The notes below the pieces were generated by a model that had not been told where the DNA came from, ran no database searches, and saw only the letters and a program-made list of their open reading frames with translations. From contig NZ_LT671858.1 of the NCBI RefSeq assembly GCF_900083515.1, positions 750,001 to 782,000 of the forward strand: a DNA stretch of 32,000 nucleotides, given 5' to 3'. Source of the DNA: Cuniculiplasma divulgatum (lineage in GTDB: Archaea > Thermoplasmatota > Thermoplasmata > Thermoplasmatales > Thermoplasmataceae). This document shows positions 3,092 to 27,766 of this stretch, one piece after another (the stretch's first letter is position 1; each line of letters starts with the position of its first letter). The position numbers were made by a program, and so were the translations under genes.

Positions 3092-3376
3092 ATGAACATA
3101 AGGAGATTAATTCTCGATGTTGGCAAGGGGATAAACAGGCCAACATTAATGGAACTTTCAGAGATAATTAGTTCGGTGAAGGGTGTAGAAGGAGTAAATA
3201 TTATCGTTACTGATATGGACATAGAGACCATGGGTGTTAATATTACCATAGAAGGGAATAATATAAATTATGAACAGGTTCTAAAGGGTATTGAAGAAGT
3301 TGGAGCTGTAGTTCATTCAATAGATGAAATAGCAGTAGGCAGTAAACTAATTGAAAATATAAGGCGTGATGAGTGA
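3092..3376 (+). CDS. DUF211-family small archaeal protein (94 aa)
   Basis: MNIRRLILDVGKG..PTLMELSEIISSVKGVEGVNIIVTDMDIETMGVNITIEGNNINYEQVLKGIEEVGAVVHSIDE matches the DUF211 pattern (RRLVLDVLKP...; V.V.EvD.et....itieG..id.e.i...IE..Ga.iHSIDeV). Confidence 0.8.
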   Translation: MNIRRLILDVGKGINRPTLMELSEIISSVKGVEGVNIIVTDMDIETMGVNITIEGNNINYEQVLKGIEEVGAVVHSIDEIAVGSKLIENIRRDE

Positions 3377-3897
3377 ACGAAGATGACTCTTTTGCTCTAA
3401 GCATAGGAGCAATAGACGGACTAATCACATCGCTGATGATAACAAGTAATGCAATAATAAGCAAATCTAACATCATGCTAGAGGCAGCCCTAAGGATCAG
3501 TTTAGGGTCAGCGGTTGTCGGAGCGGCAAGCTTCTTCGTTGCAGAATATGGAAGACTCAGGCAGGGAGAATACAGGATAGCTCATTTACTGAAACCATCA
3601 TCAAATCCAGGTCAGAGCAAAACATCTGTAATGAGAAGAAATCTAAGTGATGCATTCAAGGGTGGTTCATTATCGTTTATCATGGGGTTTGTTGGAGCGG
3701 CAATTCCAATAGTAAGTTATTCATTACTGCATAGAGAAGGGATTTATTCTTTAACTTTCTCATATCTGGCATTAGGTATAATGGGGATATTTCTAGGGAA
3801 AAGTTCTGGAGGAAAAGCATCAAACTGGTTTATTTCTCTGGTTATACTGGGAGTTATAATGACCGTGGCTGGATATTACTTAAGAATAGTATCATAA
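3373..3897 (+). CDS. VIT1/CCC1-related membrane protein (archaeal short form), putative metal transporter
   Basis: The GTG start overlaps the DUF211 stop (GTGA, 3373-3376). The N-terminal SIGAIDGLITSLMI resembles the VIT-family G.nDGl.S motif. Several TM helices and a charged central loop (RLRQGEYRIAHLLKPSS...). The family call rests on motif and topology only. Confidence 0.6.
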   Translation: MNEDDSFALSIGAIDGLITSLMITSNAIISKSNIMLEAALRISLGSAVVGAASFFVAEYGRLRQGEYRIAHLLKPSSNPGQSKTSVMRRNLSDAFKGGSLSFIMGFVGAAIPIVSYSLLHREGIYSLTFSYLALGIMGIFLGKSSGGKASNWFISLVILGVIMTVAGYYLRIVS

Positions 3898-3940: not shown

Positions 3941-5380
3941 GTGCAGGTGCATCGACTAGTATATCTTTTGTTACTGAGCGTCATTTATTTTCTCTCAATT
4001 ATAATAGAGATAATTGAAGGCATATTCATTTTCTCCGGACAGATATATTACTTATTCTATTCAATCATAGGATTGATAGTATTAATGCCACTATTGGAAT
4101 ATATTTCATATAGAAAAATAAGCATTTTAAAGTTTTATCCTATAAGTATTTTCATTCTATCCACATTTTTAACCATTTTAATGGATTTCAACTATTTTCC
4201 TGCCCTTGCTCTTCAAATAATCGCACTCATATTTTCCATAAGGTACATTATGGATAATGACAGAATGAAGAAATATCATTTAGTTTACATAATTTATGGT
4301 TTTCTAATGCTTCTTCTTTCATCCCTTCTCAGGGTGATTTCATTTGAGAGATTATCTCAGGTTTTGATTTTTAACATAGGTGATGATATTAATGTTAAAG
4401 GGGTCCCATTTTTCTTCAGCAATGGGGTTGTGATAGCTGGAATGAGGTATTTCGTGTTTTCCTTCAGTTTTCAGTATATGATCATAATACTAATTTTGGG
4501 GTTCCTGCTTCTTGAAAATGCAAGAAAAATAATTCAAATATCAAAAGTCAAAAATCAGGGGAAAAGCAACTTACTCAATTTAACATCCATGAGCTTCTCT
4601 GTATTTTCGTGCCAATGTGAAACCGTCACATCCATAATCCCAGCCATTGGTGCTGAAATTCTCGGCATAATATCACTGCCCATAATAACAGAAAGTCTCA
4701 TTCTTTCAATAGGAACATTCCTGTATCTTCATTTTGTCCAAAGGGAAAGATATGGAATATTTGGCAAACTTTGGAATTCAAAGAAAAAGAGAAAAGGCTT
4801 ATTATTCATAGCCCTCCTGATAATGATTCTAAGTCCAATACTGATAACCTTTGGTGTATATTTTGGGTTGCAAAGAAACCTCCTTTTCTATTTTGGAACT
4901 AATCTCGGTCTATTTGCGGTTTCATCCTTAATATTCACCCGTCTATTTAGTGAAATCAGGATTAGTATTGGTATATCAAAAGTGTTGTATGTTGTTTTGG
5001 CTCTTCTCACAATCTTCTTCATGGTTGTATGGTATGTTCCAGCAGTTCTTGATGTTGCAGTGAAGAACGGGTTAATCTTTTCAATCATGGGCCTGTTTTC
5101 AGTGCTTTCCGGTATTCTATTATCATTAATGCTAACACCAATTAATAAAATAGGGAGATCCATAATATATGAATACATAACTGGGATGTTTCCAGTAGTT
5201 TTTGTAATAGTACTTTATTATACTGTTATTACTTCAAGCCAGATTTGGCCAGCTTTCAGCATAACGAGTCAACTAATATTTGGTCTTGTGCTATTGGGAA
5301 TAAGCCTTCCAATTATGTGGTTTTCCACTAATTATTCAATATATGGAAATTATATAGCGAACAAAGACACACACAGATAA
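3941..5380 (+). CDS. polytopic integral membrane protein (479 aa), unknown family
   Basis: Long ORF with a GTG start and at least 10 hydrophobic segments. It has a membrane-proximal Cys pair, FSVFSCQCETVTSIIPAIG. It begins 43 nt after the VIT-like gene. The start codon is uncertain. Confidence 0.7.
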   Translation: MQVHRLVYLLLLSVIYFLSIIIEIIEGIFIFSGQIYYLFYSIIGLIVLMPLLEYISYRKISILKFYPISIFILSTFLTILMDFNYFPALALQIIALIFSIRYIMDNDRMKKYHLVYIIYGFLMLLLSSLLRVISFERLSQVLIFNIGDDINVKGVPFFFSNGVVIAGMRYFVFSFSFQYMIIILILGFLLLENARKIIQISKVKNQGKSNLLNLTSMSFSVFSCQCETVTSIIPAIGAEILGIISLPIITESLILSIGTFLYLHFVQRERYGIFGKLWNSKKKRKGLLFIALLIMILSPILITFGVYFGLQRNLLFYFGTNLGLFAVSSLIFTRLFSEIRISIGISKVLYVVLALLTIFFMVVWYVPAVLDVAVKNGLIFSIMGLFSVLSGILLSLMLTPINKIGRSIIYEYITGMFPVVFVIVLYYTVITSSQIWPAFSITSQLIFGLVLLGISLPIMWFSTNYSIYGNYIANKDTHR

Positions 5381-5468
5381 TGTACATAGTCTGTTTAAAA
5401 CGAATTAAGCATTTATCATATGATGTTACAATTAGAAATGCGTAAATATTAAGTTCAAATCAAAGCCT

Positions 5469-6281
5469 ATGCAAATTGAAATAGTTTCTGAAAATGGTAA
5501 TCTTTTTCCAATTGCTTACGAAAATGGCTCTGTTAAGAAGGGAAGAAAGATTTCAAATCTAAATAAATTCTACATGGAATTAAGTGAAAATATAAATTCT
5601 GCAGAATTTGTGCAGGGTGATACAAAAAGTTATACGAGTGTCATTCCAGTTAATCCTGGCAAAATTCTTTGTCCTGCTTTGAATTTCAAAAATCATTCCG
5701 CTGAAACTGTACAGAAAAGCCCTGAATTTCCATATTTTTTTCCAAAATTCTCCAATTCATTAATACCATTTAATGGAAAAATATTAAAACATGAAGGTAT
5801 AAAACAGCTGGATTATGAGGGAGAAATAGCAGCAATAGTAGGAAAAAAGACGTCAAAAGCTTCAAGGAGTGAGGCTCAGAATTCCATAGTTGGTTTTGCG
5901 GTAGTGAACGACGTAAGTGCAAGAGATTATCAAAATCAATTTTCACCCAATTTAGGAAAGAACTGGATAATGGGAAAAGCCGCAGACACTTTTCTTCCTG
6001 TAAGCAAAACTGTGTTTATAGGAAAAGAAGAAGAATTTTCAATTAAGACTTTTGTGAATGGTGAAATTCGTCAGGATGGTAACACAAAAGACATGATATT
6101 CTCATTTGCAGATATGGTATCTTATATAAGCAAAAATATAACACTGGAACCTGGAGACATGATTCTCAGCGGTACACCAGCTGGTGTTGCAGCATCAGGT
6201 AAATACCCATATCTTGGGAAAGGAGATATGATAAGGATAGAATCAGAAAAAATTGGCAAACTTGAAAATGTTGTTGGATAA
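5469..6281 (+). CDS. fumarylacetoacetate hydrolase (FAH) family protein, FAHD1/HpcE-like
   Basis: DYEGEIAAIVGKK..., VVNDVSARDYQ, GKAADTFLPV and MIFSFADMVSYISKNITLEPGDMILSGTPAGV are the canonical FAH-fold motifs. Confidence 0.9.
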   Translation: MQIEIVSENGNLFPIAYENGSVKKGRKISNLNKFYMELSENINSAEFVQGDTKSYTSVIPVNPGKILCPALNFKNHSAETVQKSPEFPYFFPKFSNSLIPFNGKILKHEGIKQLDYEGEIAAIVGKKTSKASRSEAQNSIVGFAVVNDVSARDYQNQFSPNLGKNWIMGKAADTFLPVSKTVFIGKEEEFSIKTFVNGEIRQDGNTKDMIFSFADMVSYISKNITLEPGDMILSGTPAGVAASGKYPYLGKGDMIRIESEKIGKLENVVG

Positions 6282-6305
6282 GATTTTTGTATATTTATCA
6301 TTTAA

Positions 6306-7190
6306 ATGATATTCGAGGAAAGCAAGGAAGAGCTGTTTCAGGCTAAAATTCCATTCCCCATATTCATTCCTGAAAATGAAGAAATTAAATCATCTATCAG
6401 ATTTTCATATAATGAACCTATTTCAGTCAGGATTGAAGTTGGATCAGACAGAGAAAGAATCTCAATCAAGGAATCATTCATGGACTGGTTCTATTATGGG
6501 TTTCCAAAAAACCATATGAAGAGTTCTGTTGAATATTATGGAAAGGAGACAGTACAAATAATGGACATAAACGGTGAAAAAAGTGTAATTTTTTCCGGAC
6601 GAGATTATTTAGGCCGATCATCATCAACTGCTTTCTTTAATGGAACTATGCTTGAATTCAGGTACGAAGAAGGAATGGAAGATGCAGCTCTGAATATGAT
6701 TAGAGATATAAGGACCCATTCAGTCGGAGCAATAAACTTTATAGACAGTTCATTCCTTTGTAATTATCATTCAAATTTTCAGTGGTTTGAAAACGAGAGA
6801 ATCGGAAGGCTATCCTGGAAAAAAATATGGGGAGAGGGACTATGGAATTACTTTCCTGATTCCACTGGAGAATTCCAGCACCTTCATAAAATCACAATCT
6901 TTAAAAATAGATTGAACGAATTTATGTGGGTTGATGTTTCCAGGAAGAATAGTGGCATTAAAAATTTAAGGTACAGATTTTCAAGAGGTGGAAATATTTT
7001 TAAACTAATGAAAACCAAGGATAATTCTTTCTATGGGGCTATTTCTGACATAGGACCTTATCTTTTTCAGAACGAAGATGAGAAATTCGTTTATACAGTT
7101 ACAGTTCCCAGAATGAAAGAATTTGAAAAGAACTGTCAGAATTTTTTTTCACATATGGAAAATTTAAATTTCAGCCCATTTTTACCGTGA
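6306..7190 (+). CDS. hypothetical protein (294 aa), no recognisable family; translationally coupled to the downstream ATPase
   Basis: Clean ATG ORF with soluble, apparently beta-rich composition, aromatic-rich (W/F/Y). Its stop at 7188-7190 lies 3 nt before the ATG of the next gene. Confidence 0.7.
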   Translation: MIFEESKEELFQAKIPFPIFIPENEEIKSSIRFSYNEPISVRIEVGSDRERISIKESFMDWFYYGFPKNHMKSSVEYYGKETVQIMDINGEKSVIFSGRDYLGRSSSTAFFNGTMLEFRYEEGMEDAALNMIRDIRTHSVGAINFIDSSFLCNYHSNFQWFENERIGRLSWKKIWGEGLWNYFPDSTGEFQHLHKITIFKNRLNEFMWVDVSRKNSGIKNLRYRFSRGGNIFKLMKTKDNSFYGAISDIGPYLFQNEDEKFVYTVTVPRMKEFEKNCQNFFSHMENLNFSPFLP

Positions 7191-7193
7191 TCA

Positions 7194-9098
7194 ATGCCTT
7201 TCAGATATGATATTGGTATCTCCTCTGGAAAGAGAATTCAGGGAGAAGGTATAGAGATTGGGAATGGAGCTTCAGGTTATCCATATTTAATTAATGCCCG
7301 ATCTCTGATGTTCCACACACTAATCACGGGTAGAACCGGAACTGGAAAATCCAATCTTCTATTAAATCTTTGCAAGAATATTCTTAAAGTAGAGAGTTCA
7401 AATATGATCGTAATAGACTTTCACGGTTCACTTTCAGACCATATTATTACAATGATAGATAACAAGAAACTGATCTATCTTGGGAGTTCACCAGATGGTA
7501 AAAGTGTTGTGAAAATGAATATATTAAAAGGTGCCTCCCAATCTTCTGTATCATTCTACCTTATACAGGAAATATTCTCCAGGGAATCTTCACTCTCAGG
7601 AGGAACATGGGGACCGAGATTACAAACCATATTCACTTCAGTACTGAGGGAAATATTACTAAGAGAGCCAGAAGCAACTTTAAGTGACTTCATGGACACA
7701 CTTCTTTCAAAGGAGATGATGAAATCGCTTTCTGCCAGTTGCACCAAGGAAAGCAGAAAAGTGATAGAAAATCTTATATCAAAATGGCAGTCATGGATAG
7801 AATATAGCTCCAGTTCAATAAATAAGTTATATCCAATTTTAAGTGATCCTAAGATAAAATCACTGGTTTCGTCAAGAAATGAAAGCGTAGATATTATAAA
7901 GGAACTGACTGAAGGTGATAAAGTAGTTGTAATAGACGTGTCAAAGACAAGATTTTCTACAACTCAAGGCAAAATAATTTCTTCACTAATACTAAACAGA
8001 ATCTGGACAGAAATCCTTAAAGAAGGAATAACTCCACAAACAATGATTGTAGCAGACGAGGCGCAGAATCTGAATTCTAGCGTGCTGTCTGAGATTCTAA
8101 GTGAGGGAAGAAAATTTAAAACCTACCTTACCGTAGCTTCTCAGTATCTGGATCAGTACGATCGATATACAAAGGGGTCTCTCCTTTCAAACTGTGGTTC
8201 GATTTACTCATTCAATGTATCTGAAAGGGACGCTATGGAAATCACTAACGTTATTACAAACAGAAAGAAGAAGACTGAAGCTTTAAAATCTATACTGCTC
8301 GGAACACCACATAATGTAACACACTTTAATTTCCTTTCGAAAAGTGGAATAGAAGTGGATAGTTTTATCCCTTACTTAATTGATACAAAGGTAAACAAAA
8401 TTGAAGTCGAATCTAGAGTAGGGGAAAGTTTAGATCTGTATGGTAACGATACAGATGAGGAGCCAATGTCAGAGATTTTAACTCTGCCTGATCATACTTA
8501 TTTATCAACATTTATGCTGCGGTTCCTTGAAAGTAGAGATATATTTCCAGAAAGAGAAAGAAAACTTAACAGTCTAAGACCAGATATTTTATTCTATTAC
8601 AACAACCGGCCTGTTGTTGTCGAAATTGAAGTTTCAGATGTGGGGAAGTTTTCAAGGGTAGTTGAAAAAGCCGTAAATTACAGTTCTTTAAAATTGATTT
8701 TTCTATGTGGGAGAAATATGGGCAGAATACTATATGAAAAATTTTGCAACAGAGACTCCATGCGAAATAGTCTTGAAAATCTGAAAATGAAAGGGTCCGG
8801 ATCATATTATGATTACAGGAACATTCTAATATGTGAGGAAAGAAATGGTATTCTGTACTTAGTTGTAGGTGGGAAACTGGTAAGATTTTCAATAGATAAA
8901 CTTGAAAATTACAGGACCTTCGTGGAACAGTCTGTCATGGGGTCATCTTTTATCGAGATCTGCATGAATGAAATGAGGAGAAAATCGGATTACTTTCTTT
9001 GTATTGAGGAAATAAACAAATTATGGGATAAAGCACATTATGCTGAATCCTTTAATTTTAGGAATGAAAGCATTACAATATTTGATTTATATAAATAA
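7194..9098 (+). CDS. FtsK/HerA-superfamily P-loop NTPase (DUF87/AAA_10/TrwB-VirD4-like core) with an additional C-terminal domain of about 200 aa
   Basis: Walker A is HTLITGRTGTGKSN (GRTGTGKS = nt 7329-7352). Walker B is TMIVADEAQNL (8043-8060). It is followed by EGRKFKTYLTVASQYLDQY....GSIYSFNVSERDA, the pattern seen in TrwB/TraD/VirD4 and HerA-like ATPases. No TM segments. Residues from about 430 to 634 lie outside the ATPase core. Confidence 0.85.
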   Translation: MPFRYDIGISSGKRIQGEGIEIGNGASGYPYLINARSLMFHTLITGRTGTGKSNLLLNLCKNILKVESSNMIVIDFHGSLSDHIITMIDNKKLIYLGSSPDGKSVVKMNILKGASQSSVSFYLIQEIFSRESSLSGGTWGPRLQTIFTSVLREILLREPEATLSDFMDTLLSKEMMKSLSASCTKESRKVIENLISKWQSWIEYSSSSINKLYPILSDPKIKSLVSSRNESVDIIKELTEGDKVVVIDVSKTRFSTTQGKIISSLILNRIWTEILKEGITPQTMIVADEAQNLNSSVLSEILSEGRKFKTYLTVASQYLDQYDRYTKGSLLSNCGSIYSFNVSERDAMEITNVITNRKKKTEALKSILLGTPHNVTHFNFLSKSGIEVDSFIPYLIDTKVNKIEVESRVGESLDLYGNDTDEEPMSEILTLPDHTYLSTFMLRFLESRDIFPERERKLNSLRPDILFYYNNRPVVVEIEVSDVGKFSRVVEKAVNYSSLKLIFLCGRNMGRILYEKFCNRDSMRNSLENLKMKGSGSYYDYRNILICEERNGILYLVVGGKLVRFSIDKLENYRTFVEQSVMGSSFIEICMNEMRRKSDYFLCIEEINKLWDKAHYAESFNFRNESITIFDLYK

Positions 9099-9120
9099 TT
9101 TAGTATAATTAATAGATAAT

Positions 9121-9137
9121 TGACCTTATTAAGGTCA
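9121..9137. repeat. 17-bp perfect palindrome TGACCTTA-T-TAAGGTCA
   Basis: Read directly: tgaccttattaaggtca, with 8-bp arms around one central base. It sits between the ATPase stop (9098) and the TATA-like box of the next gene. Possible operator or weak hairpin; the function is not established. Confidence 0.4.
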
Positions 9138-9145
9138 GAAATATA

Positions 9146-9152: not shown

Positions 9153-9172
9153 GGCATTTGACATGTAAAATT

Positions 9173-9871
9173 ATGATATCTGAAGAGGTAAATGAAAATA
9201 ACTTCTATAAGAAGACATATGAGTTTGTAAAAAAGCATAGCGCCATAGACAATGAGTTCATAAACAGATTTGCAAAAGGTGATATTAGTGTAGAAGAATT
9301 TAAACGTTTTTCTGTGGAATTCTTCCACTTTACCAGGGAGTGGCCAGCAATTCTCTCAACCTTGCTGGTTAACACTCCAGATGAGTCAGATGCTGCTAAC
9401 CTTACAACTATTCTCGTTTCAGAACTCGGTGATATGGATCCAACCAAGAGACATGAACTTTTATACAGAAAGTACCTTAGAAGTCTCAATATGGAACCCA
9501 CATCCCTTGTTAAGGCTAAGCAACTACCAACAACAAAGGCTTGGCTAGACGGTATGAGAAACTATTTTTCATCAGATTACTATGAAGCACTTGGAGCGGA
9601 ATTTGGTCTTGAAAATATGGCTATTCCAATGTGGGACAAAATACTTTCAGGTTTCAAAATCTTCACGCAGAAACATCCTGAATTCAAGGGTGTTGACATA
9701 GAGTACTTCACATTTCACAGAGAACTTGAAGAACACCACGAAGAGGCAATGGAAGATGTTCTTGGAACTCACAAGAGTGATCCAGATGCAAGGGAGAAAT
9801 TTTTCAAGGGAGCAAAAGGAATACTTGATCTGGAAAAGAATTTCTGGCTAGGACTTTCGGATAAACACTGA
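9173..9871 (+). CDS. heme-oxygenase-like fold, iron-containing redox enzyme family protein (CADD/PqqC/TenA-like)
   Basis: FINRFAKGDISVEEFKRFSVEFFHFTREWP, ILVSELGDMDPTKRHELLYRKYLRSLNM and FHRELEEHHEEAM match the E..G.G....H..L and E..H di-metal ligand pattern of this family. The ORF is open from a TTG at 9158, but the ATG at 9173 fits the promoter geometry. Confidence 0.75.
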   Translation: MISEEVNENNFYKKTYEFVKKHSAIDNEFINRFAKGDISVEEFKRFSVEFFHFTREWPAILSTLLVNTPDESDAANLTTILVSELGDMDPTKRHELLYRKYLRSLNMEPTSLVKAKQLPTTKAWLDGMRNYFSSDYYEALGAEFGLENMAIPMWDKILSGFKIFTQKHPEFKGVDIEYFTFHRELEEHHEEAMEDVLGTHKSDPDAREKFFKGAKGILDLEKNFWLGLSDKH

Positions 9872-11393: not shown

Positions 11394-11810
11394 ATGCAAC
11401 ACAGAAAAGACGGAAACTTCGTTATAGTGAAGCTAGATGAAGGGGAGGATATAATAAAATCACTGGAAAAGGTTCTGGTTGAAGAAAATATAAAGAACGG
11501 TTTTATAGTTTCAGGAATAGGAGCTGGAGTTGAGCTTGAGATTGGTTATCTGAGAGGAAAAACCTATGAGAGAGAAATATTCAGTCCGCCAATGGAAATC
11601 ACATCATTTTCCGGAAGCATAACTGAGGGAGACCCAAAGATGCACATCCATATCAACGCAGCAGGACCTGATCATGTTACTTACGGGGGGCATCTTTTCA
11701 GTGGGAAAACAAAACCTCTAATGGAAATATTATTATTTTCCACAGAGTCAATAAAAATGACCAGGGAGTTAAAGGAAAGCAGTGGTATGAGAGAACTCAA
11801 GTTTCTCTGA
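11394..11810 (+). CDS. PPC (DUF296) domain protein
   Basis: FVIVKLDEGEDIIKSLEKVL...GFIVSGIGAGVELEIGY...SGSI.....MHIHINAAGPDHVTYGGHLFSG fits the PPC/DUF296 pattern (...hlH..l....G...GGHL). The 36 residues upstream in the track ORF (MRWNSFCIMAFYFWNN...) are N/F/C-rich and look non-coding. Confidence 0.8.
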   Translation: MQHRKDGNFVIVKLDEGEDIIKSLEKVLVEENIKNGFIVSGIGAGVELEIGYLRGKTYEREIFSPPMEITSFSGSITEGDPKMHIHINAAGPDHVTYGGHLFSGKTKPLMEILLFSTESIKMTRELKESSGMRELKFL

Positions 11811-12846
11811 TCAGTTCCCTGATCAGTTCAAGATGCCAGGGTTCCCTATTCTTCAATTTAGAGTATATTTCATCTGCATCCTTTTCTTCAACACCATATT
11901 TGGAAAGACTTTCACTAAATCCAAGGGATGCTATAAATTCTTTTACCAGGAAATAAGCATTTTCAGGATCCTCATCACTGACATTTTTTCCAGAAATTGT
12001 TGCTGCAATCTCTCTCATCGCCTCTGGAAACAGTGTGGAATAATGTTTCATAACAGCCGGGAGTGTTATGCAGGATGTAATTCCATGAGGAATCTCAAAT
12101 CTTGATCCAACAACTTTGCCTATGTTATGGCTTATTCCCATAGGAGAGTCATAGACCTGCCAGTAGGAGTACCAGGATGCTATCTGACACTTTAATCTGG
12201 ACTCCAGATCGTCCGATTCAAGATTATCAAATAGCAGTCGTATACCCTTTAATGCAGCGGTTCTAGAAATTTCCAGAAGATTTGGATGGATAATACTTTC
12301 AACGCAGTGATCCAAAGATCTTATGCCTGTAGATCTCCAGAGTCTTTCAGGGGTTTCAACCGTTATTTCTGGATCAAGTATTACTTCCTGAGGAGTGATC
12401 TTCTTATCTCTGATCCCATCCTTTTCTCCTCCTATGGTATATCCTGCGATGTGTGAAAATTCAGATGCAGATAATGTTGTTGGAACTGCAATATGCAGTG
12501 TTTCAATATCATAATAGTACTTTACCACCTTTGCAGCGTCAGTAACGCTTCCACCGCCAATCGAAAGTATTGAATCACAGTGATTGTTTCTGTAAACTTC
12601 CACAGCATGTTCTATTTCCTCCATTGGAGAATGCTGTGTTATCTGGTTCATGATGAAATAGTCTGTTCCAAGAATATTTAGGATTTTATTGAAACTTTTT
12701 GTTTTTGAAACTGAGTTACCAGTTATTATTAACAGTCTCTTCTTCCTTGTCTGGGTTAGAATAGAATTTATATTTGAAACAGAGCCCTTTCCATATGTTA
12801 CCCTGTTGATTGGAACATAATTAAATTCTTCTTTCACTGAAACCAC
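11797..12846 (-). CDS. iron-containing alcohol dehydrogenase family protein, maleylacetate reductase-like
   Basis: The N-terminal FNYVPINRVTYGKGSV resembles the maleylacetate reductase N-terminus. ILSIGGGSVTDAAK is the Fe-ADH nucleotide-binding block, and SLDHCVESI and IPHGITSCITLPAVMKH are the metal-His blocks. The GTG start at 12846 overlaps the hmgA 3' end by 13 nt. An alternative GTG at 12837 would give a GTGA start/stop overlap. Confidence 0.8.
   Translation of the reverse strand: MVSVKEEFNYVPINRVTYGKGSVSNINSILTQTRKKRLLIITGNSVSKTKSFNKILNILGTDYFIMNQITQHSPMEEIEHAVEVYRNNHCDSILSIGGGSVTDAAKVVKYYYDIETLHIAVPTTLSASEFSHIAGYTIGGEKDGIRDKKITPQEVILDPEITVETPERLWRSTGIRSLDHCVESIIHPNLLEISRTAALKGIRLLFDNLESDDLESRLKCQIASWYSYWQVYDSPMGISHNIGKVVGSRFEIPHGITSCITLPAVMKHYSTLFPEAMREIAATISGKNVSDEDPENAYFLVKEFIASLGFSESLSKYGVEEKDADEIYSKLKNREPWHLELIRELIRET
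11807..11829. repeat. 12-bp-period tandem duplication (CTGATCAGTTC x2)
   Basis: ctgatcagttc at 11807-11817 recurs at 11819-11829. On the minus strand it encodes the C-terminal ELIRELIR of the Fe-ADH protein. It spans the stop of the convergent PPC gene (TGA 11808-11810). Confidence 0.7.
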
Positions 12847-13976
12847 GATTTTGAATAGTCTGGATCTTCAATTTCTTTTCCCTTCTTTGTAAGGAATAGG
12901 TGATCATAAGTTTCAATCATTACTGCAACCTCATCAGTTCCCTCCTTGCCAATGGCATTCTCCACTGCTCCTGGTTGTGGACCGTGAATTATTCCTCTTA
13001 CATGAAGGGTAACAGAACCGGGCTCTATTCCTTTCCTGCTCATGAAGTTTCCTGAAGAATAGAAAAGGAATTCGTCCACATCTATATTATTGTGGTAATA
13101 TGAAATAGGTATGCTTTTTGAATTGAAGTCAAATTTTCTGGGTAGAAATGTGCCTACCATCATTGACCTAGAAGAAAATGTTTCATGAACAGGTGGGGGC
13201 ATATGGATCTTGCCAACTATGGGTGCCATTATATCTGTATTTATAGCATATGGGTAGAGATAGCCATCCCAGCCTTCCACATCAAGAGGATTATAATCCC
13301 TCTCTTCAATAACCATGTTGTTATCAAGTTCAACAAAAACCTGATAATTTCCAGTTTCGTCCTTTGGTTTCTGAAGTATTGGTACCCTTATGTTTCTTGT
13401 ATAGTATGGCGATCCCTCTTTTATCTGACCATAAAGGTTTAGATATCTCCTGGGAAGTGTTATATCATCCTTAGACTGGAATAAGAGAAAATAGGATTCT
13501 TTTGAACATTCTATTCTGAATGTAAGCCCCTTAGGTATGTATATATAATCTCTCGGTCCAAATTCAATATCTCCCAGTACCGATATTAATTTTCCCTTTC
13601 CATTATGCACAAACAGAAGCATATCATATATTCCATTCCTGTAAAAGTCCATGGTATTCTTTTCAGGTTTTAATATCTGAACCTTGATCCGGTCATTCAT
13701 TAGAATGGTTACTTTTCCATCTATAATCGTACCATTTCTTGGAATATCAGATGTTTTTAGATGTCTGTGTGAATACGGGGAATCATCAAGTGTCTCTTTC
13801 TGAATTTCCTTGCTAATGAATTTCTTCACTCTAGTAGGCTCGTTTATGTGGTAAAGGAGGCTATACGGCCCATCGAAACTCTCCTCACCAAACAACTCTT
13901 CTCTTCTCAATTTATTCCTATCTTCATATGTGTGCCTGCTTTCAGGCATAACTCCCTGTTTTACATAAAACACCAT
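12834..13976 (-). CDS. hmgA: homogentisate 1,2-dioxygenase (short prokaryotic form)
   Basis: The cupin-type Fe site pattern YHNNIDVDEFLFY....GSVTLHVRGIIHGPQPG corresponds to the H....EF......SLH....HGP motif of homogentisate dioxygenases. The N-terminal ELFGEESFDGPYSLLYH is also typical. Confidence 0.88.
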   Translation of the reverse strand: MVFYVKQGVMPESRHTYEDRNKLRREELFGEESFDGPYSLLYHINEPTRVKKFISKEIQKETLDDSPYSHRHLKTSDIPRNGTIIDGKVTILMNDRIKVQILKPEKNTMDFYRNGIYDMLLFVHNGKGKLISVLGDIEFGPRDYIYIPKGLTFRIECSKESYFLLFQSKDDITLPRRYLNLYGQIKEGSPYYTRNIRVPILQKPKDETGNYQVFVELDNNMVIEERDYNPLDVEGWDGYLYPYAINTDIMAPIVGKIHMPPPVHETFSSRSMMVGTFLPRKFDFNSKSIPISYYHNNIDVDEFLFYSSGNFMSRKGIEPGSVTLHVRGIIHGPQPGAVENAIGKEGTDEVAVMIETYDHLFLTKKGKEIEDPDYSKSWFQ

Positions 13977-13977
13977 T

Positions 13978-14853
13978 TCAACTCACCTCATTTTTTAAAA
14001 TTCCTAAAGTTTCTGATCTTATTTCCACCATATCACCTGCCTGCAACCATCTTGTTTCAGGTTCATTCTTCTCAAAAAGGCACCCACCAGCCATAGTACC
14101 AGTCATTAAAATATCACCTTTTTTCAGGCAGCTATCCATCGAGCAGTACTCAATCATTTGACCTATACTGAAGTACATGTCCTTCATATTAGATCTCGAA
14201 AACGGTACACCATTTACGCTGGAATCCACATCTATATCGAATGTTTTTCCATTCCATTTTTTTGCTAGCTCATCTGTTGTGGTTATGTATGGACCTATGC
14301 TTGTTGCAAAATCCTTGGATTTAGAAGGCCCAAGATTAAGAGCAGCCTCTTTCCTCCATAGGTCTCTTGCACTCCAATCATTCATTAGCGTCAATCCATA
14401 GATATATTCCAGAGCCCTATTCTTTTCTATATTCCTCCCCTCCTTTCCAATTATTATTCCAATTTCAATTTCTAGATCCAGTTCACTGGTAAAAGAGGGC
14501 TTCGCTATTTTTTCACCACTAGGTCTCAAAGCATCCTTGTTAGTATAATAATATATAGGAATCTGGTACCACAAAGGATTCATTTCCAAACCTCTATTTT
14601 TTCTGGAATTTCTTACATGTTCTTCAAACGTATAGAAATCTCTTACCTGATTAACATCTTTCAATGGAATCAGCAAATTGTAACTTTCATTTACTAATTG
14701 AAATTCTGAAATATTGTCCAGCAAGGTCTTGTTGTTTAAATCAAATATGGACAGGTTATTCTTATAAAGATAATCAGACATTAAATAAGTGTCATTTCCC
14801 ATAAAAACAGCATACGAATCTGTTCCATGGTAAGAGATTCTACCTATCTTCAT
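13978..14853 (-). CDS. fumarylacetoacetate hydrolase family protein (candidate fumarylacetoacetase of the operon)
   Basis: LDLEIEIGIIIGKEG, GLTLMNDWSARDLW, GPSKSKDFATSIGPY and GDILMTGTMAGG are FAH-fold motifs. The stop lies 1 nt from the hmgA ATG. Confidence 0.85.
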   Translation of the reverse strand: MKIGRISYHGTDSYAVFMGNDTYLMSDYLYKNNLSIFDLNNKTLLDNISEFQLVNESYNLLIPLKDVNQVRDFYTFEEHVRNSRKNRGLEMNPLWYQIPIYYYTNKDALRPSGEKIAKPSFTSELDLEIEIGIIIGKEGRNIEKNRALEYIYGLTLMNDWSARDLWRKEAALNLGPSKSKDFATSIGPYITTTDELAKKWNGKTFDIDVDSSVNGVPFSRSNMKDMYFSIGQMIEYCSMDSCLKKGDILMTGTMAGGCLFEKNEPETRWLQAGDMVEIRSETLGILKNEVS

Positions 14854-14863
14854 ACTTATCTAA

Positions 14864-15949
14864 TTAAAGATTTCCCCTTCTGGCCTGATCCTTTTCTATG
14901 GACTCAAAAAGTGCCTTGAAATTACCCTTTCCAAAAGACGTCGCACCTTTTCTCTGGATAATCTCATAGAAGAATGTGGGCCTATCACCGGTGGGTTTTG
15001 TGAAAATCTGAAGAAGATAACCATCATCATCCCGATCAACCAGAATATTGAGAGACTTCAGCGTGGCTATATCTTCATCTATTTTGCCAACTCTCTGAGC
15101 CAACTCATCATAATAAGAATCCGGGGCCGATTGGAACTGTATTCCCTCATTCTTCATTTTGGATACGGTTCCAATAATATCATCGGTATGAAGAGCTATA
15201 TGCTGTACACCTGGCATATGATAATAGTCAAGATATTCCTGTATCTGTGATTTCTTCTTTCCTGGGGCAGGTTCATTTATCGGAAAAACTATCTTCCTGT
15301 TGTTATACTGAACAACTTTTGATCTGAGGGCGGTAAACTCTGTACTTATATCCTTATCATCAAAACTTATAAGTGGTTCGAATCCCATTCCATCAACGTA
15401 GTAATCTACCCAGCTATCCATTTTCTTATCCTCTACATTTCCAACTATGTGATCAAATCTCGTAATTCCACTTCCCTTTGTTTCAATCATTTCCACAGGT
15501 TCAAAATTTGGCGGTAACTTTGATTCAAATTCACCATAATCTATAAGGGAGTGAACAGTTTCTCCGTAGGTAAATGCCCTGGCCTTATGAACAGTACCGT
15601 TTTCTGTTTTAATATCCTCCGCTTTCTCATATTTTACAACTTTTCTTTCTCGTAAGTCATTAAGGGCATCATCGAGGCTGTTTACTCTGATGGCTATATC
15701 TTTCACACCGTCACCATGTAATTTAACGTGGTTTGATATAACAGAATCAGGATGAAGTGAATTTGTGACCATGACTTTCACCTTTCCCTGCTCCATAAGG
15801 TAAGATACTTTATCCCTCACCCCTGTCTCTGGTCCACTATAACCTATGATGTTAAAACCCAGTCCAAACTTGTGATAATACGCCCATTGTTTTGCAGATC
15901 CCACATAAAATTCAACATAGTCAACCCTATCCAGAGCCTTTTGTGTCAT
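14864..15949 (-). CDS. hppD: 4-hydroxyphenylpyruvate dioxygenase
   Basis: The C-terminal LLQIFTKPTGDRPTFFYEIIQRKGATSFGKGNFKALFESIEKDQARRGNL is the diagnostic HPPD signature. VQHIALHTDDI is a metal-His block. The ORF is open from a TTG at 15964, but I prefer the ATG at 15949 (MTQKALDRVDYVEFYV). Confidence 0.93.
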   Translation of the reverse strand: MTQKALDRVDYVEFYVGSAKQWAYYHKFGLGFNIIGYSGPETGVRDKVSYLMEQGKVKVMVTNSLHPDSVISNHVKLHGDGVKDIAIRVNSLDDALNDLRERKVVKYEKAEDIKTENGTVHKARAFTYGETVHSLIDYGEFESKLPPNFEPVEMIETKGSGITRFDHIVGNVEDKKMDSWVDYYVDGMGFEPLISFDDKDISTEFTALRSKVVQYNNRKIVFPINEPAPGKKKSQIQEYLDYYHMPGVQHIALHTDDIIGTVSKMKNEGIQFQSAPDSYYDELAQRVGKIDEDIATLKSLNILVDRDDDGYLLQIFTKPTGDRPTFFYEIIQRKGATSFGKGNFKALFESIEKDQARRGNL

Positions 15950-15965
15950 ATCAGATAATAACAAG

Positions 15966-26782: not shown

Positions 26783-27766
26783 ATGGGTTTGAGTTTCTTA
26801 ATTGTTCCACTACTTATCACTGTTCTTGTTATTTTGGGAATCAGTTTATTTTTAACGTTTTTCAATTTTAGAGCAATTAGGCTATTTAGCCAAAAATATG
26901 AGGAAGATATTGAAAACTATAAGACAACTGTCAATGACTTCGAAGAAGATTTTACCATATCTCCTGATGATGAGATAGAAGAGGATGATGAAATAGAGAA
27001 AGAACACACCAGAGAAGAAGTAAAGCTAGAAATAGATAAGGATATGGAGAGACTCACAAACGAAATCAGAAAGAATGAGTTACTAATGGAAAAAATGGAA
27101 AAACACTATTCAACTCTGAGAAAAGTTTCTAAGGACATGATGGAAAGCATTATTCCCCCAACAAAATTTCAATCTTTTTCAGATACCTATGCACCAATAC
27201 CACTGATCGATGAAAAACCACTATGGAATGATCTTGTTAGAAATCATATTCCGCCGGATCAGGGAAATCTTTACGAAATGTGGGGTAAATATGTTGAACT
27301 CACTGCGAAATATTCTCATCAGAAGGTCGAGTCCATAAAAGGTATACTGGATAAAATTTTTGGCAGGACAGAGTATCGGCGATTAGATCAACCTGATATC
27401 AACAATAGTGGAGAAACATACTACGCAGCGAAACCAGTGCTTCATATCCTGAATAATCTTTTCTTTAATGAACCAGAGATTCAATTTCTTCTAGAGGATG
27501 GAAAAAAGGAGAAAAAACTTGGGAGATCATCAACACTTCTGGTAAACAACGAAGAATTTATACATGGAAAAACGTCTGAAGTAATGGCATTTCAGTCAAT
27601 GTTCAGGGAAATTCTTGATACGAAGAATTACTCCATATGCAAGGAGACTCAAAGACAGAAAGAGTTAAAAAGTGAAATAGACGACATTATTAAAAATATA
27701 AAGAAATTATTAAACTGGTTCATATTTGAGGAAGATAACATGATACAGTGTAAAATGCTGGAGTGA
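26783..27766 (+). CDS. hypothetical membrane-anchored protein with acidic/coiled-coil linker (327 aa)
   Basis: The ATG directly abuts the aminotransferase stop (TAA 26780-26782). It has an N-terminal TM anchor (LSFLIVPLLITVLVILGISLFLTFF), an acidic tract (DDEIEEDDEIEKE) and a K/E-rich helical stretch. No family recognised. Confidence 0.7.
   Translation: MGLSFLIVPLLITVLVILGISLFLTFFNFRAIRLFSQKYEEDIENYKTTVNDFEEDFTISPDDEIEEDDEIEKEHTREEVKLEIDKDMERLTNEIRKNELLMEKMEKHYSTLRKVSKDMMESIIPPTKFQSFSDTYAPIPLIDEKPLWNDLVRNHIPPDQGNLYEMWGKYVELTAKYSHQKVESIKGILDKIFGRTEYRRLDQPDINNSGETYYAAKPVLHILNNLFFNEPEIQFLLEDGKKEKKLGRSSTLLVNNEEFIHGKTSEVMAFQSMFREILDTKNYSICKETQRQKELKSEIDDIIKNIKKLLNWFIFEEDNMIQCKMLE
27760..27763 (+). 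promoter_or_regulatory. Shine-Dalgarno-like GGAG(TGA) for nadM
   Basis: ggag lies 8 nt upstream of the ATG at 27772, embedded in the end of the preceding ORF. Confidence 0.35.

Follow-up and report, generated by a model that had tools for sequence, protein, structure and literature searches.

Genes for an orphan protein and a HerA/TrwB-type ATPase with a probable fused nuclease domain form a conserved pair in Thermoplasmatales-type archaea

In this study we describe a pair of neighbouring genes in a stretch of 32,000 nucleotides (nt) from the archaeon Cuniculiplasma divulgatum (contig NZ_LT671858.1, positions 750,001 to 782,000), which is referred to as the window throughout. The first gene encodes an orphan protein of 294 amino acids (aa), here called X, and the second a 634-aa ATPase that probably carries a nuclease domain at its C-terminus. 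The two genes have remained together through a swap of their order at one and the same core locus, and we put the chance at about one in two that they constitute a chromosomal, vertically inherited two-protein module for DNA processing, in which a translocase-nuclease would work with X as an accessory subunit and which is so far confined to Thermoplasmatales-type archaea. An earlier reading made from the letters alone (the sequence-only reading) had proposed an effector or sensor plus a motor, possibly for defence or DNA processing. The co-conserved pair has stood up to our analysis; the role given to the partner has not, since the domain that probably acts as effector is part of the motor protein, which makes this role improbable for X.

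Linkage of X and the ATPase

The stop codon of X (TGA, 7188-7190) is followed by three nucleotides (TCA) and the ATG of the ATPase gene at 7194, so that the coupling described in the sequence-only reading is confirmed to the nucleotide. Given the base composition of the window (G+C about 35%), the probability of a stop-free run is about 3e-10 for 294 codons and about 3e-21 for 634 codons; because of these low values and of the conserved homologues of both proteins we regard the two open reading frames (ORFs) as real genes. Both proteins were also expected to lack transmembrane segments, and none was found in either (maximum 19-residue Kyte-Doolittle mean 0.51 in X, 1.08 in the ATPase). A stretch with 99% identity to the window at the protein level is present in an assembled metagenome contig (ACXJ01010979, L067).

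Linkage was surveyed with hidden Markov models of X and of the ATPase run on the six-frame ORFs of 80 fetched loci, in combination with gene calls. In about 17 lineages X and the ATPase adjoin, despite a flipped order. The order FAH-X-ATPase, with a gene of the FAH family in front, was found in the window and in L001-L010, L014, L067 and L082, the order FAH-ATPase-X in L011, L012, L015, L016, L075 and L077/L078, and ATPase-X without FAH in L013 and L076. Adjacent pairs are spaced by -20 to +6 nt. At most loci the FAH gene lies directly 5' of the pair in both orders, overlapping the next gene in relatives, and it is probably co-transcribed with the pair. The genes for a heme-oxygenase-like protein and for His_Phos_1 follow downstream in both orders, which marks the same chromosomal locus. 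That the pair stayed contiguous while its order was swapped at this locus is our main argument for a functional link between the two proteins. Looser arrangements occur as well: in L074 an opposite-strand oxidoreductase gene stands between the ATPase and X, and in L068 and L072 the order is epimerase-X-CoA-binding, followed further on by a 179-aa ORF and an ATPase of 550 aa, with 1.7 kb from X to the ATPase.

Genomic neighbourhood

A block made up of FAH, the pair, heme-oxygenase-like, His_Phos_1 and homogentisate genes is shared by Cuniculiplasma, Caldiplasma, E-plasma and Thermoplasmataceae metagenome-assembled genomes, and among the matches listed it recurs at ATPase identities of 26-76%. 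The named close homologues among these matches all come from Thermoplasmatota (Cuniculiplasma, Caldiplasma, E-plasma, A-plasma, Thermogymnomonas and Thermoplasmataceae metagenome-assembled genomes). The examined neighbourhoods are made up throughout of housekeeping or metabolic genes, namely those for DUF211, VIT1-like, a 480-aa membrane protein, FAH, heme-oxygenase-like, His_Phos_1, PCC, Fe-ADH/HgmA/FAH/HPPD, ribosomal proteins, RNA polymerase subunits and DnaK/DnaJ. The metabolic neighbours named in the sequence-only reading were borne out, with an FAH gene (PF01557) 24 nt upstream of X and a heme-oxygenase-like gene (PF14518) 3' of the ATPase. In the window the locus is single-copy, and the ten largest other ORFs, all of them housekeeping, include no conjugation, integrase or defence gene, in line with the absence of conjugation and integrase genes noted before. 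The examined neighbourhoods contain neither integrase, transposase or methyltransferase genes nor known defence genes, mre11 and rad50 are absent from every examined locus, and no relaxase, VirB4, pilus or type IV secretion system (T4SS) gene was found in the window or in the loci of relatives. That all close relatives examined share this housekeeping synteny fits a vertically inherited core pair rather than a defence island.

Architecture of the ATPase

The 634-aa protein is a soluble ATPase of the FtsK/HerA/TrwB superfamily, without a membrane anchor and with a TrwB-like insert. It scores above threshold for the Pfam families DUF87 (the HerA central domain) and TrwB_AAD_bind (PF10412, 22.8 bits against a cut-off of 20.5), and a profile built from 22 homologues (27-76% identity to the window protein) matches HerA chains in the PDB. 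The motifs picked out by the sequence-only reading are all present, namely GRTGTGKS at aa 46, MIVADE at 284, EGRKF at 304, VASQ at 314 and, as the (N)xG(S)xxxF block, SNCGSIYSF at 332. Invariant across the 22 homologues are the Walker A motif, the hhhhDE stretch at 284-289, EGRKF at 304 and SQ at 316-317, which belong to the RecA-like core. The AlphaFold 2 (AF2) model of the protein, with a predicted local distance difference test score (pLDDT) of 82.9, was matched by Foldseek to DndH-C, Sulfolobus HerA, SIR2-HerA, TdpAB and TrwB (E 1e-9 to 1e-13), with a probability of 1.00 and E 1e-11 to 1e-13 for HerA, TrwB and DndH-C, and the highest target-normalised TM-score was that of TrwB (0.59-0.64). 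Helices at aa 118-225 lie between Walker A and Walker B in the model, as does the all-alpha insert of TrwB, and contain the invariant residues S135 and G137-L143 (an SxGTWGPRL loop). Only about 40 residues precede Walker A, and since this motif starts at aa 46 the protein is without the HAS barrel of HerA. The NCBIfam models for HerA, CedB, VirB4 and TraD remain far below their cut-offs (HerA 19-22 bits against 800, CedB 23 against 700). In PADLOC the best match is mad8 (PDLC04140, 9.7e-15, aa 39-354), and several HerA models match too, all of them over the generic core only; the mad8 profile has 314 positions and its match stops at aa 354, short of the nuclease-like domain.

The extra C-terminal part that had been noted beyond the core is confirmed, and it consists of a probable PD-(D/E)xK-like domain and a small tail. 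Past the core, H434, D464, E477, E479, D482, R488 and K492 are invariant in the same 22 homologues and follow the pattern RPD...VEIEVSD...R...EK. The AF2 model orders the elements of aa 433-505 as alpha-beta-beta-beta-alpha-beta (helix 433-446, short strands, strands 465-469 and 472-479, helix 486-495, strand 500-505), an order that matches the PD-(D/E)xK core. All relevant sub-threshold Pfam matches of the domain are to restriction-endonuclease-fold families: CoiA_nuc in four of 14 members (best E 0.015) and, in the divergent L072 homologue, REase_MTES_1575 (4.6e-4) and AHJR-like (0.15) next to CoiA_nuc. PDB sequences searched with the profile of the C-terminal domain and with the single L072 sequence gave no match. 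The domain is kept even in the shortest homologues of 550 aa, which lack the last 90 residues or so. Taken from sequence and model, the C-terminus of the ATPase is a probable nuclease domain of the restriction-endonuclease, PD-(D/E)xK-like fold.

The tail is missing from the 580-aa protein P0017 and from the 550-aa proteins of L072 and L068. Homologues that are not adjacent to X and have no conserved tail had suggested aa 575-634 or so as a docking element for X; the idea was rejected because P0017 lacks the tail and yet its gene overlaps X.

As regards the family, C. divulgatum strains PM4 and S5 have in common an arCOG05334 gene (CPM_RS03215/CSP5_RS00830), an 'ATP-binding protein' of about 620 aa (PMC10354927, supplement 1), and CPM_RS03215 agrees in size and name with our homologue P0024. 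Judged indirectly, by the described architecture and the matching C. divulgatum core gene, the window ATPase appears to have the arCOG05334 architecture. Searches of the main texts of the literature for arCOG05334, and for DUF87 together with Thermoplasmat*, gave nothing, and we found no experimental work on arCOG05334.

More distant relatives of the ATPase core, at 21-27% identity over about aa 41-350, were seen among the matches listed in Patescibacteria, Gammaproteobacteria, Planctomycetota and Actinomycetota (L020-L051). Most of these bacterial loci have a stop-to-stop ORF of about 750-850 aa with the ATPase in its C-terminal half; they show no X homologue and no match to the nuclease domain, and in some a second ATPase-like gene follows downstream.

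The orphan partner X

The earlier description of X as an orphan is upheld, as none of Pfam, NCBIfam, PADLOC and PHROGs gave a match close to a family threshold. A HMMER scan of the X family profile against 1.84 billion representative proteins recovered 45 proteins (clusters), nearly all of 280-320 aa; where source names are given they all read 'hypothetical protein', and where organisms are named they are all Thermoplasmatota. The AF2 model (pLDDT 84.7, predicted TM-score 0.85) is mostly beta with three longer helices. Foldseek gave no match to it in the PDB or BFVD at E<=1e-3, the poor best matches being RseB/MucB, PsbP/Mog1-like and clamp-like folds with query-normalised TM-scores <=0.25, and going by the model the fold is possibly new. 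Invariant in the family are F17, R32, K55, D60-W61-F62, P67-K68, G98, Y101, E117, W160, E162, W171, G188 and Y223. Because the likely effector of the pair, the nuclease-like domain, is fused to the motor in cis, X is probably an accessory subunit and not an effector.

Several identities for X were considered and rejected. A HEPN assignment through the string RDIRTH (aa 133-138) fails because the string lies in a variable stretch and its R and H are not conserved among 35 family members, which agrees with the caution voiced in the sequence-only reading. That reading had also named a NurA-like partner in synteny with mre11 and rad50 as the outcome that would speak against it; X has neither a NurA fold match nor any sequence relative in a profile search of the PDB, NurA included, and neither gene stands at the loci. 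Very weak Foldseek matches to PCNA, 9-1-1, TBP-like and PsbP folds gave rise to the idea of an internal duplication with clamp- or TBP-like pseudo-symmetry, which is unsupported (hhalign probability of 0.3% for the N-terminal against the C-terminal half), and for a viral origin nothing was found in BFVD or PHROGs.

X and a convergent uracil-DNA glycosylase (UDG) gene share 17-22 nt at their 3' ends in three divergent lineages (L015 9900-11515; L073 5980-7612; L080 8001-9554). In the last of these, from Thermogymnomonas acidicola (7693-8864), the genes for a divergently oriented DNA ligase and for SSB are found 5' of X, and X itself is start/stop-overlapped with a 102-aa, highly charged and probably coiled-coil ORF. 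The UDG overlap and the ligase and SSB neighbours are weak hints that point to DNA maintenance. A tight block of NAD-dependent epimerase/dehydratase, X and CoA_binding_2 protein was observed in another clade, in L063-L066, L070 and L072 (at about 4900-7350); in L063-L066 a DNA-binding protein of the HU/HTa type follows CoA_binding_2, and in L063 and L064 the epimerase and X genes overlap.

Further features of the window

The features of the pair and its flanks are collected in Table 1.

Table 1. Features at and around the X-ATPase gene pair (positions in the window)
Feature	Position	Strand	Basis and remarks
FAH-family hydrolase gene	5469..6281	+	PF01557, E 5.8e-56; generic HpaG-like in NCBIfam; ends 24 nt before X
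X, soluble beta-rich orphan, presumed accessory subunit	6306..7190	+	no family match; AF2 model
ATPase with probable fused PD-(D/E)xK-like domain, 634 aa	7194..9098	+	DUF87, TrwB_AAD_bind; Foldseek; AF2
Walker A GRTGTGKS, aa 46-53	7329..7352	+	invariant in 22 homologues
All-alpha insertion, aa ~118-240	7545..7913	+	between Walker A and Walker B; holds invariant GTWGPRL loop
Walker B MIVADE, aa 284-289	8043..8060	+	D288 and E289 invariant
Probable PD-(D/E)xK-like nuclease domain, aa ~431-510	8484..8723	+	invariant H434, D464, E477, E479, D482, R488, K492
C-terminal tail domain, aa ~540-634	8811..9095	+	model: beta-hairpins and helices; variable, missing in some homologues
Palindrome TTGACCTTATTAAGGTCA	9120..9138	.	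perfect 7-bp arms; A/T-rich tract after; terminator-like on both strands

The palindrome lies in the AT-rich spacer between the ATPase gene and the heme-oxygenase-like gene. It probably marks where the transcription unit ends and may act as a terminator or else as an operator of the downstream gene. The latter, of the heme-oxygenase-like/CADD family, was called mechanically as an ORF of 9158-9871 with a TTG start, and the alternative in-frame ATG at 9173 (aaaattATGatatct), just 3' of a TATA-like stretch, looks the more plausible start.

Upstream of FAH the window encodes a 479-aa polytopic membrane protein (3941-5380), which represents an uncharacterised family, and a 174-aa protein (3373-3897), neither of which, as encoded in the window, has a Pfam or NCBIfam match; for the 174-aa protein the orthologue in Cuniculiplasma gives a weak VIT1 match. 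The two genes are syntenic 5' of FAH in lineages with the order FAH-X-ATPase only. At FAH-ATPase-X loci the fetched region does not include the 479-aa gene, and the one for the 174-aa protein lies about 6 kb off on the other strand. Both proteins were considered as parts of the system, in the manner of a Ced-like channel, and rejected.

On the minus strand, 11797-15964 is a conserved homogentisate/tyrosine-degradation cluster, in synteny with L004, L006 and L082, whose genes encode Fe-ADH, an HgmA-like dioxygenase, an HPPD-like glyoxalase and another member of the FAH family. This gives the window two FAH paralogues, about 8 kb apart. A 327-aa ORF at 26783-27766 has no Pfam match at E<=1e-5 and abuts the upstream aminotransferase gene without a gap.

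Discussion

In the two-protein module that we propose, X and the ATPase would be co-produced from one transcript by translational coupling. The ATPase may, on the precedent of HerA, TrwB and FtsK, assemble into a ring and move along DNA by means of K52, D288/E289, R306 and Q317, and the six PD-(D/E)xK domains fused in cis to such a ring would cleave the DNA that it tracks or captures, with D...ExE as the putative metal-binding triad. X might bind the ring and control the recognition or choice of substrates, their loading, or the gating and firing of the nuclease. The setting suggests a housekeeping role in DNA repair or processing.

Some of our own observations weigh against this proposal. The nuclease call rests on sub-threshold profiles, a predicted order of elements and residue conservation, and the candidate active site, D464...E477-x-E479, has a glutamate (E479) in place of the canonical lysine. 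A metal-binding D...ExE triad is found in BamHI. Physical contact between X and the ATPase is likewise something that we infer. Further points concern defence and linkage and are taken up with the two explanations to which they give room.

A first alternative is that the pair is a lineage-fixed defence against viruses or plasmids, in which the motor would track or capture invading DNA, the fused nuclease would cut it and X would sense infection or tell self from non-self. Defence systems repeatedly pair nucleases with ATPases of the HerA/FtsK type (PMC10853773), and our ATPase is matched by mad8 and several HerA models of PADLOC and, at the level of structure, by SIR2-HerA, TdpAB and DndH-C. 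In addition, strain-specific arCOG05334 copies of about 590 aa (for example CSP5_RS00275 and CSP5_RS08515) occur in Cuniculiplasma in rows beside those of cdc6 and a Mod methylase (PMC10354927, supplement 1), and these accessory copies make a defence role for the family plausible, which tells against our proposal. However, the PADLOC matches span no more than the generic ATPase core, the locus keeps the same housekeeping synteny across genera and is single-copy in the window, and genes for methyltransferases, integrases or transposases, like other defence genes, are missing from the examined neighbourhoods. The possible defence role put forward in the sequence-only reading is thus weakened, the locus being neither patchy nor mobile, and we consider it somewhat unlikely.

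A wider form of the DNA-processing reading is more speculative, and we think it unlikely. In this form X would be a new fold and the specificity or regulatory subunit of an unrecognised chromosomal class of ring-translocase-nucleases, core to wall-less acidophilic archaea, which might process DNA damage together with UDG and ligase and in parallel to HerA-NurA, and the mobile arCOG05334 paralogues might be defence derivatives or ancestors of it.

A further alternative takes the adjacency of the two genes as inherited synteny in compact genomes, with X acting independently, for example with FAH, the epimerase and CoA-binding proteins or UDG, and the ATPase-nuclease acting alone. Here the remaining points against a two-protein module have to be counted. 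X has no ATPase within 6-8 kb in L063-L066, L069-L071, L073, L079 and L080/L081 (Thermogymnomonas acidicola), at least seven of these being distinct loci; its gene is coupled there with those for an epimerase and a CoA-binding protein, or else with a coiled-coil ORF. Conversely, L018 (Oxyplasma meridianum) and L019 (UBA582) have the ATPase but no X. Operon linkage is therefore not obligatory, and since the whole region is syntenic, neighbours may simply persist by descent. On the other hand, the pair stayed tight through the order swap while its flanks varied (FAH is absent from L013 and L076, and downstream genes differ), and in L068, L072 and L074 no more than 1-2 kb separates X from the ATPase. 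Of the co-conservation that the sequence-only reading had asked about, the adjacency has thus held and an obligatory pairing has not, and we regard mere synteny as rather improbable. As a separate observation, the ATPase gene of L019 (UBA582, a Thermoplasmatales archaeon; 6101-8148) is split, with a 79-aa N-terminal fragment in another frame, a sign of a frameshift or of an error in assembly; with no X gene nearby, it may be a decaying copy.

Two other explanations can be treated more briefly. That the ATPase is a coupling protein of the TrwB/VirD4 type for the exchange of DNA between cells, with X as its adaptor, would accord with the TrwB TM-score, the PF10412 match, a weak match to CedB in NCBIfam and a homologue whose source name is 'type IV secretory system conjugative DNA transfer family protein', but the missing membrane anchor, the lack of relaxase, VirB4 and pilus genes nearby, the low CedB score and the probable fused nuclease, which is no feature of such proteins, make it very unlikely. 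A divergent HerA-NurA end-resection pair, suggested by a HerA-superfamily ATPase with a coupled partner, is exceedingly improbable given the absence of a HAS barrel, the lack of any NurA match for X and the separate canonical genes of Cuniculiplasma described below.

If X and the ATPase do form a complex, this would give a function to an orphan family whose fold may be new and a first mechanistic context to arCOG05334, and it would provide a case in which to study the exchange of parts between mobile defence systems and the core machinery of DNA maintenance. Both proteins are represented in cultured organisms: Cuniculiplasma divulgatum has a likely orthologue of the ATPase, and Thermogymnomonas acidicola has X.

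Comparison with known systems

Archaeal DNA repair and many recently described defence systems depend centrally on HerA/FtsK-type motors that have dedicated partners, and the DNA-processing module proposed here resembles several of them in part. With HerA-NurA it shares a gene for an FtsK/HerA-superfamily ATPase beside that of a dedicated partner and a nuclease activity, here a probable one, attached to the motor. It differs in that the window ATPase has no HAS barrel and carries its probable PD-(D/E)xK-type nuclease in cis, whereas NurA is separate and unrelated to X, and in that the pair is not beside mre11 or rad50. Cuniculiplasma has its canonical NurA, HerA, Mre11 and Rad50 in the rows CPM_RS03095-03110, apart from the arCOG05334 gene (PMC10354927, supplement 1). 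Hence the pair is not the HerA-NurA resection machine, nor does it replace it. TrwB and VirD4 resemble the ATPase in the all-alpha insertion of the nucleotide-binding domain, in the top target-normalised TM-score and in the PF10412 match; unlike them it has no N-terminal membrane anchor and no T4SS or relaxase context, and a nuclease-like domain has been added.

Among defence systems, SIR2-HerA (Nezha), DUF4297-HerA, TdpAB and DndH/DptH likewise combine a HerA/FtsK-type motor with a nuclease or another effector, and in DndH an REase domain and a HerA/FtsK domain share one polypeptide (PMC10853773). These systems are patchy and mobile, whereas the window locus is core and syntenic, and their defining parts (SIR2, DUF4297, TdpB, DndF/G and the N-terminus of DndH of about 900 residues) are all absent from it. 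DndH/DptH is moreover a multidomain protein of about 1700 residues that goes with DndF and DndG (PMC10853773), in contrast to our ATPase of 634 aa, which has neither as a neighbour. MADS is an operon of eight genes, mad1-mad8 (bioRxiv 10.1101/2023.03.30.534895); mad8 is the best PADLOC match of the ATPase, for its core only, and the genes of the window and neighbourhood include no further candidate for a mad component, a methyltransferase for instance. By its name, arCOG05334 has the same two-part architecture of motor and nuclease that we arrived at independently for the window ATPase; the name records no partner protein.

In conclusion, the motor-nuclease architecture (arCOG05334) and motor-plus-partner modules as a kind are already known. 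New are the conserved, order-swapping pairing with an orphan family whose model is confident and has no structural neighbour, its syntenic core position within a single archaeal order, and a partner that is probably not the effector. The pair represents a third arrangement of such motors, with a probable nuclease fused to the motor and a partner without recognisable relatives, kept as a core pair by an archaeal order that also keeps HerA-NurA.

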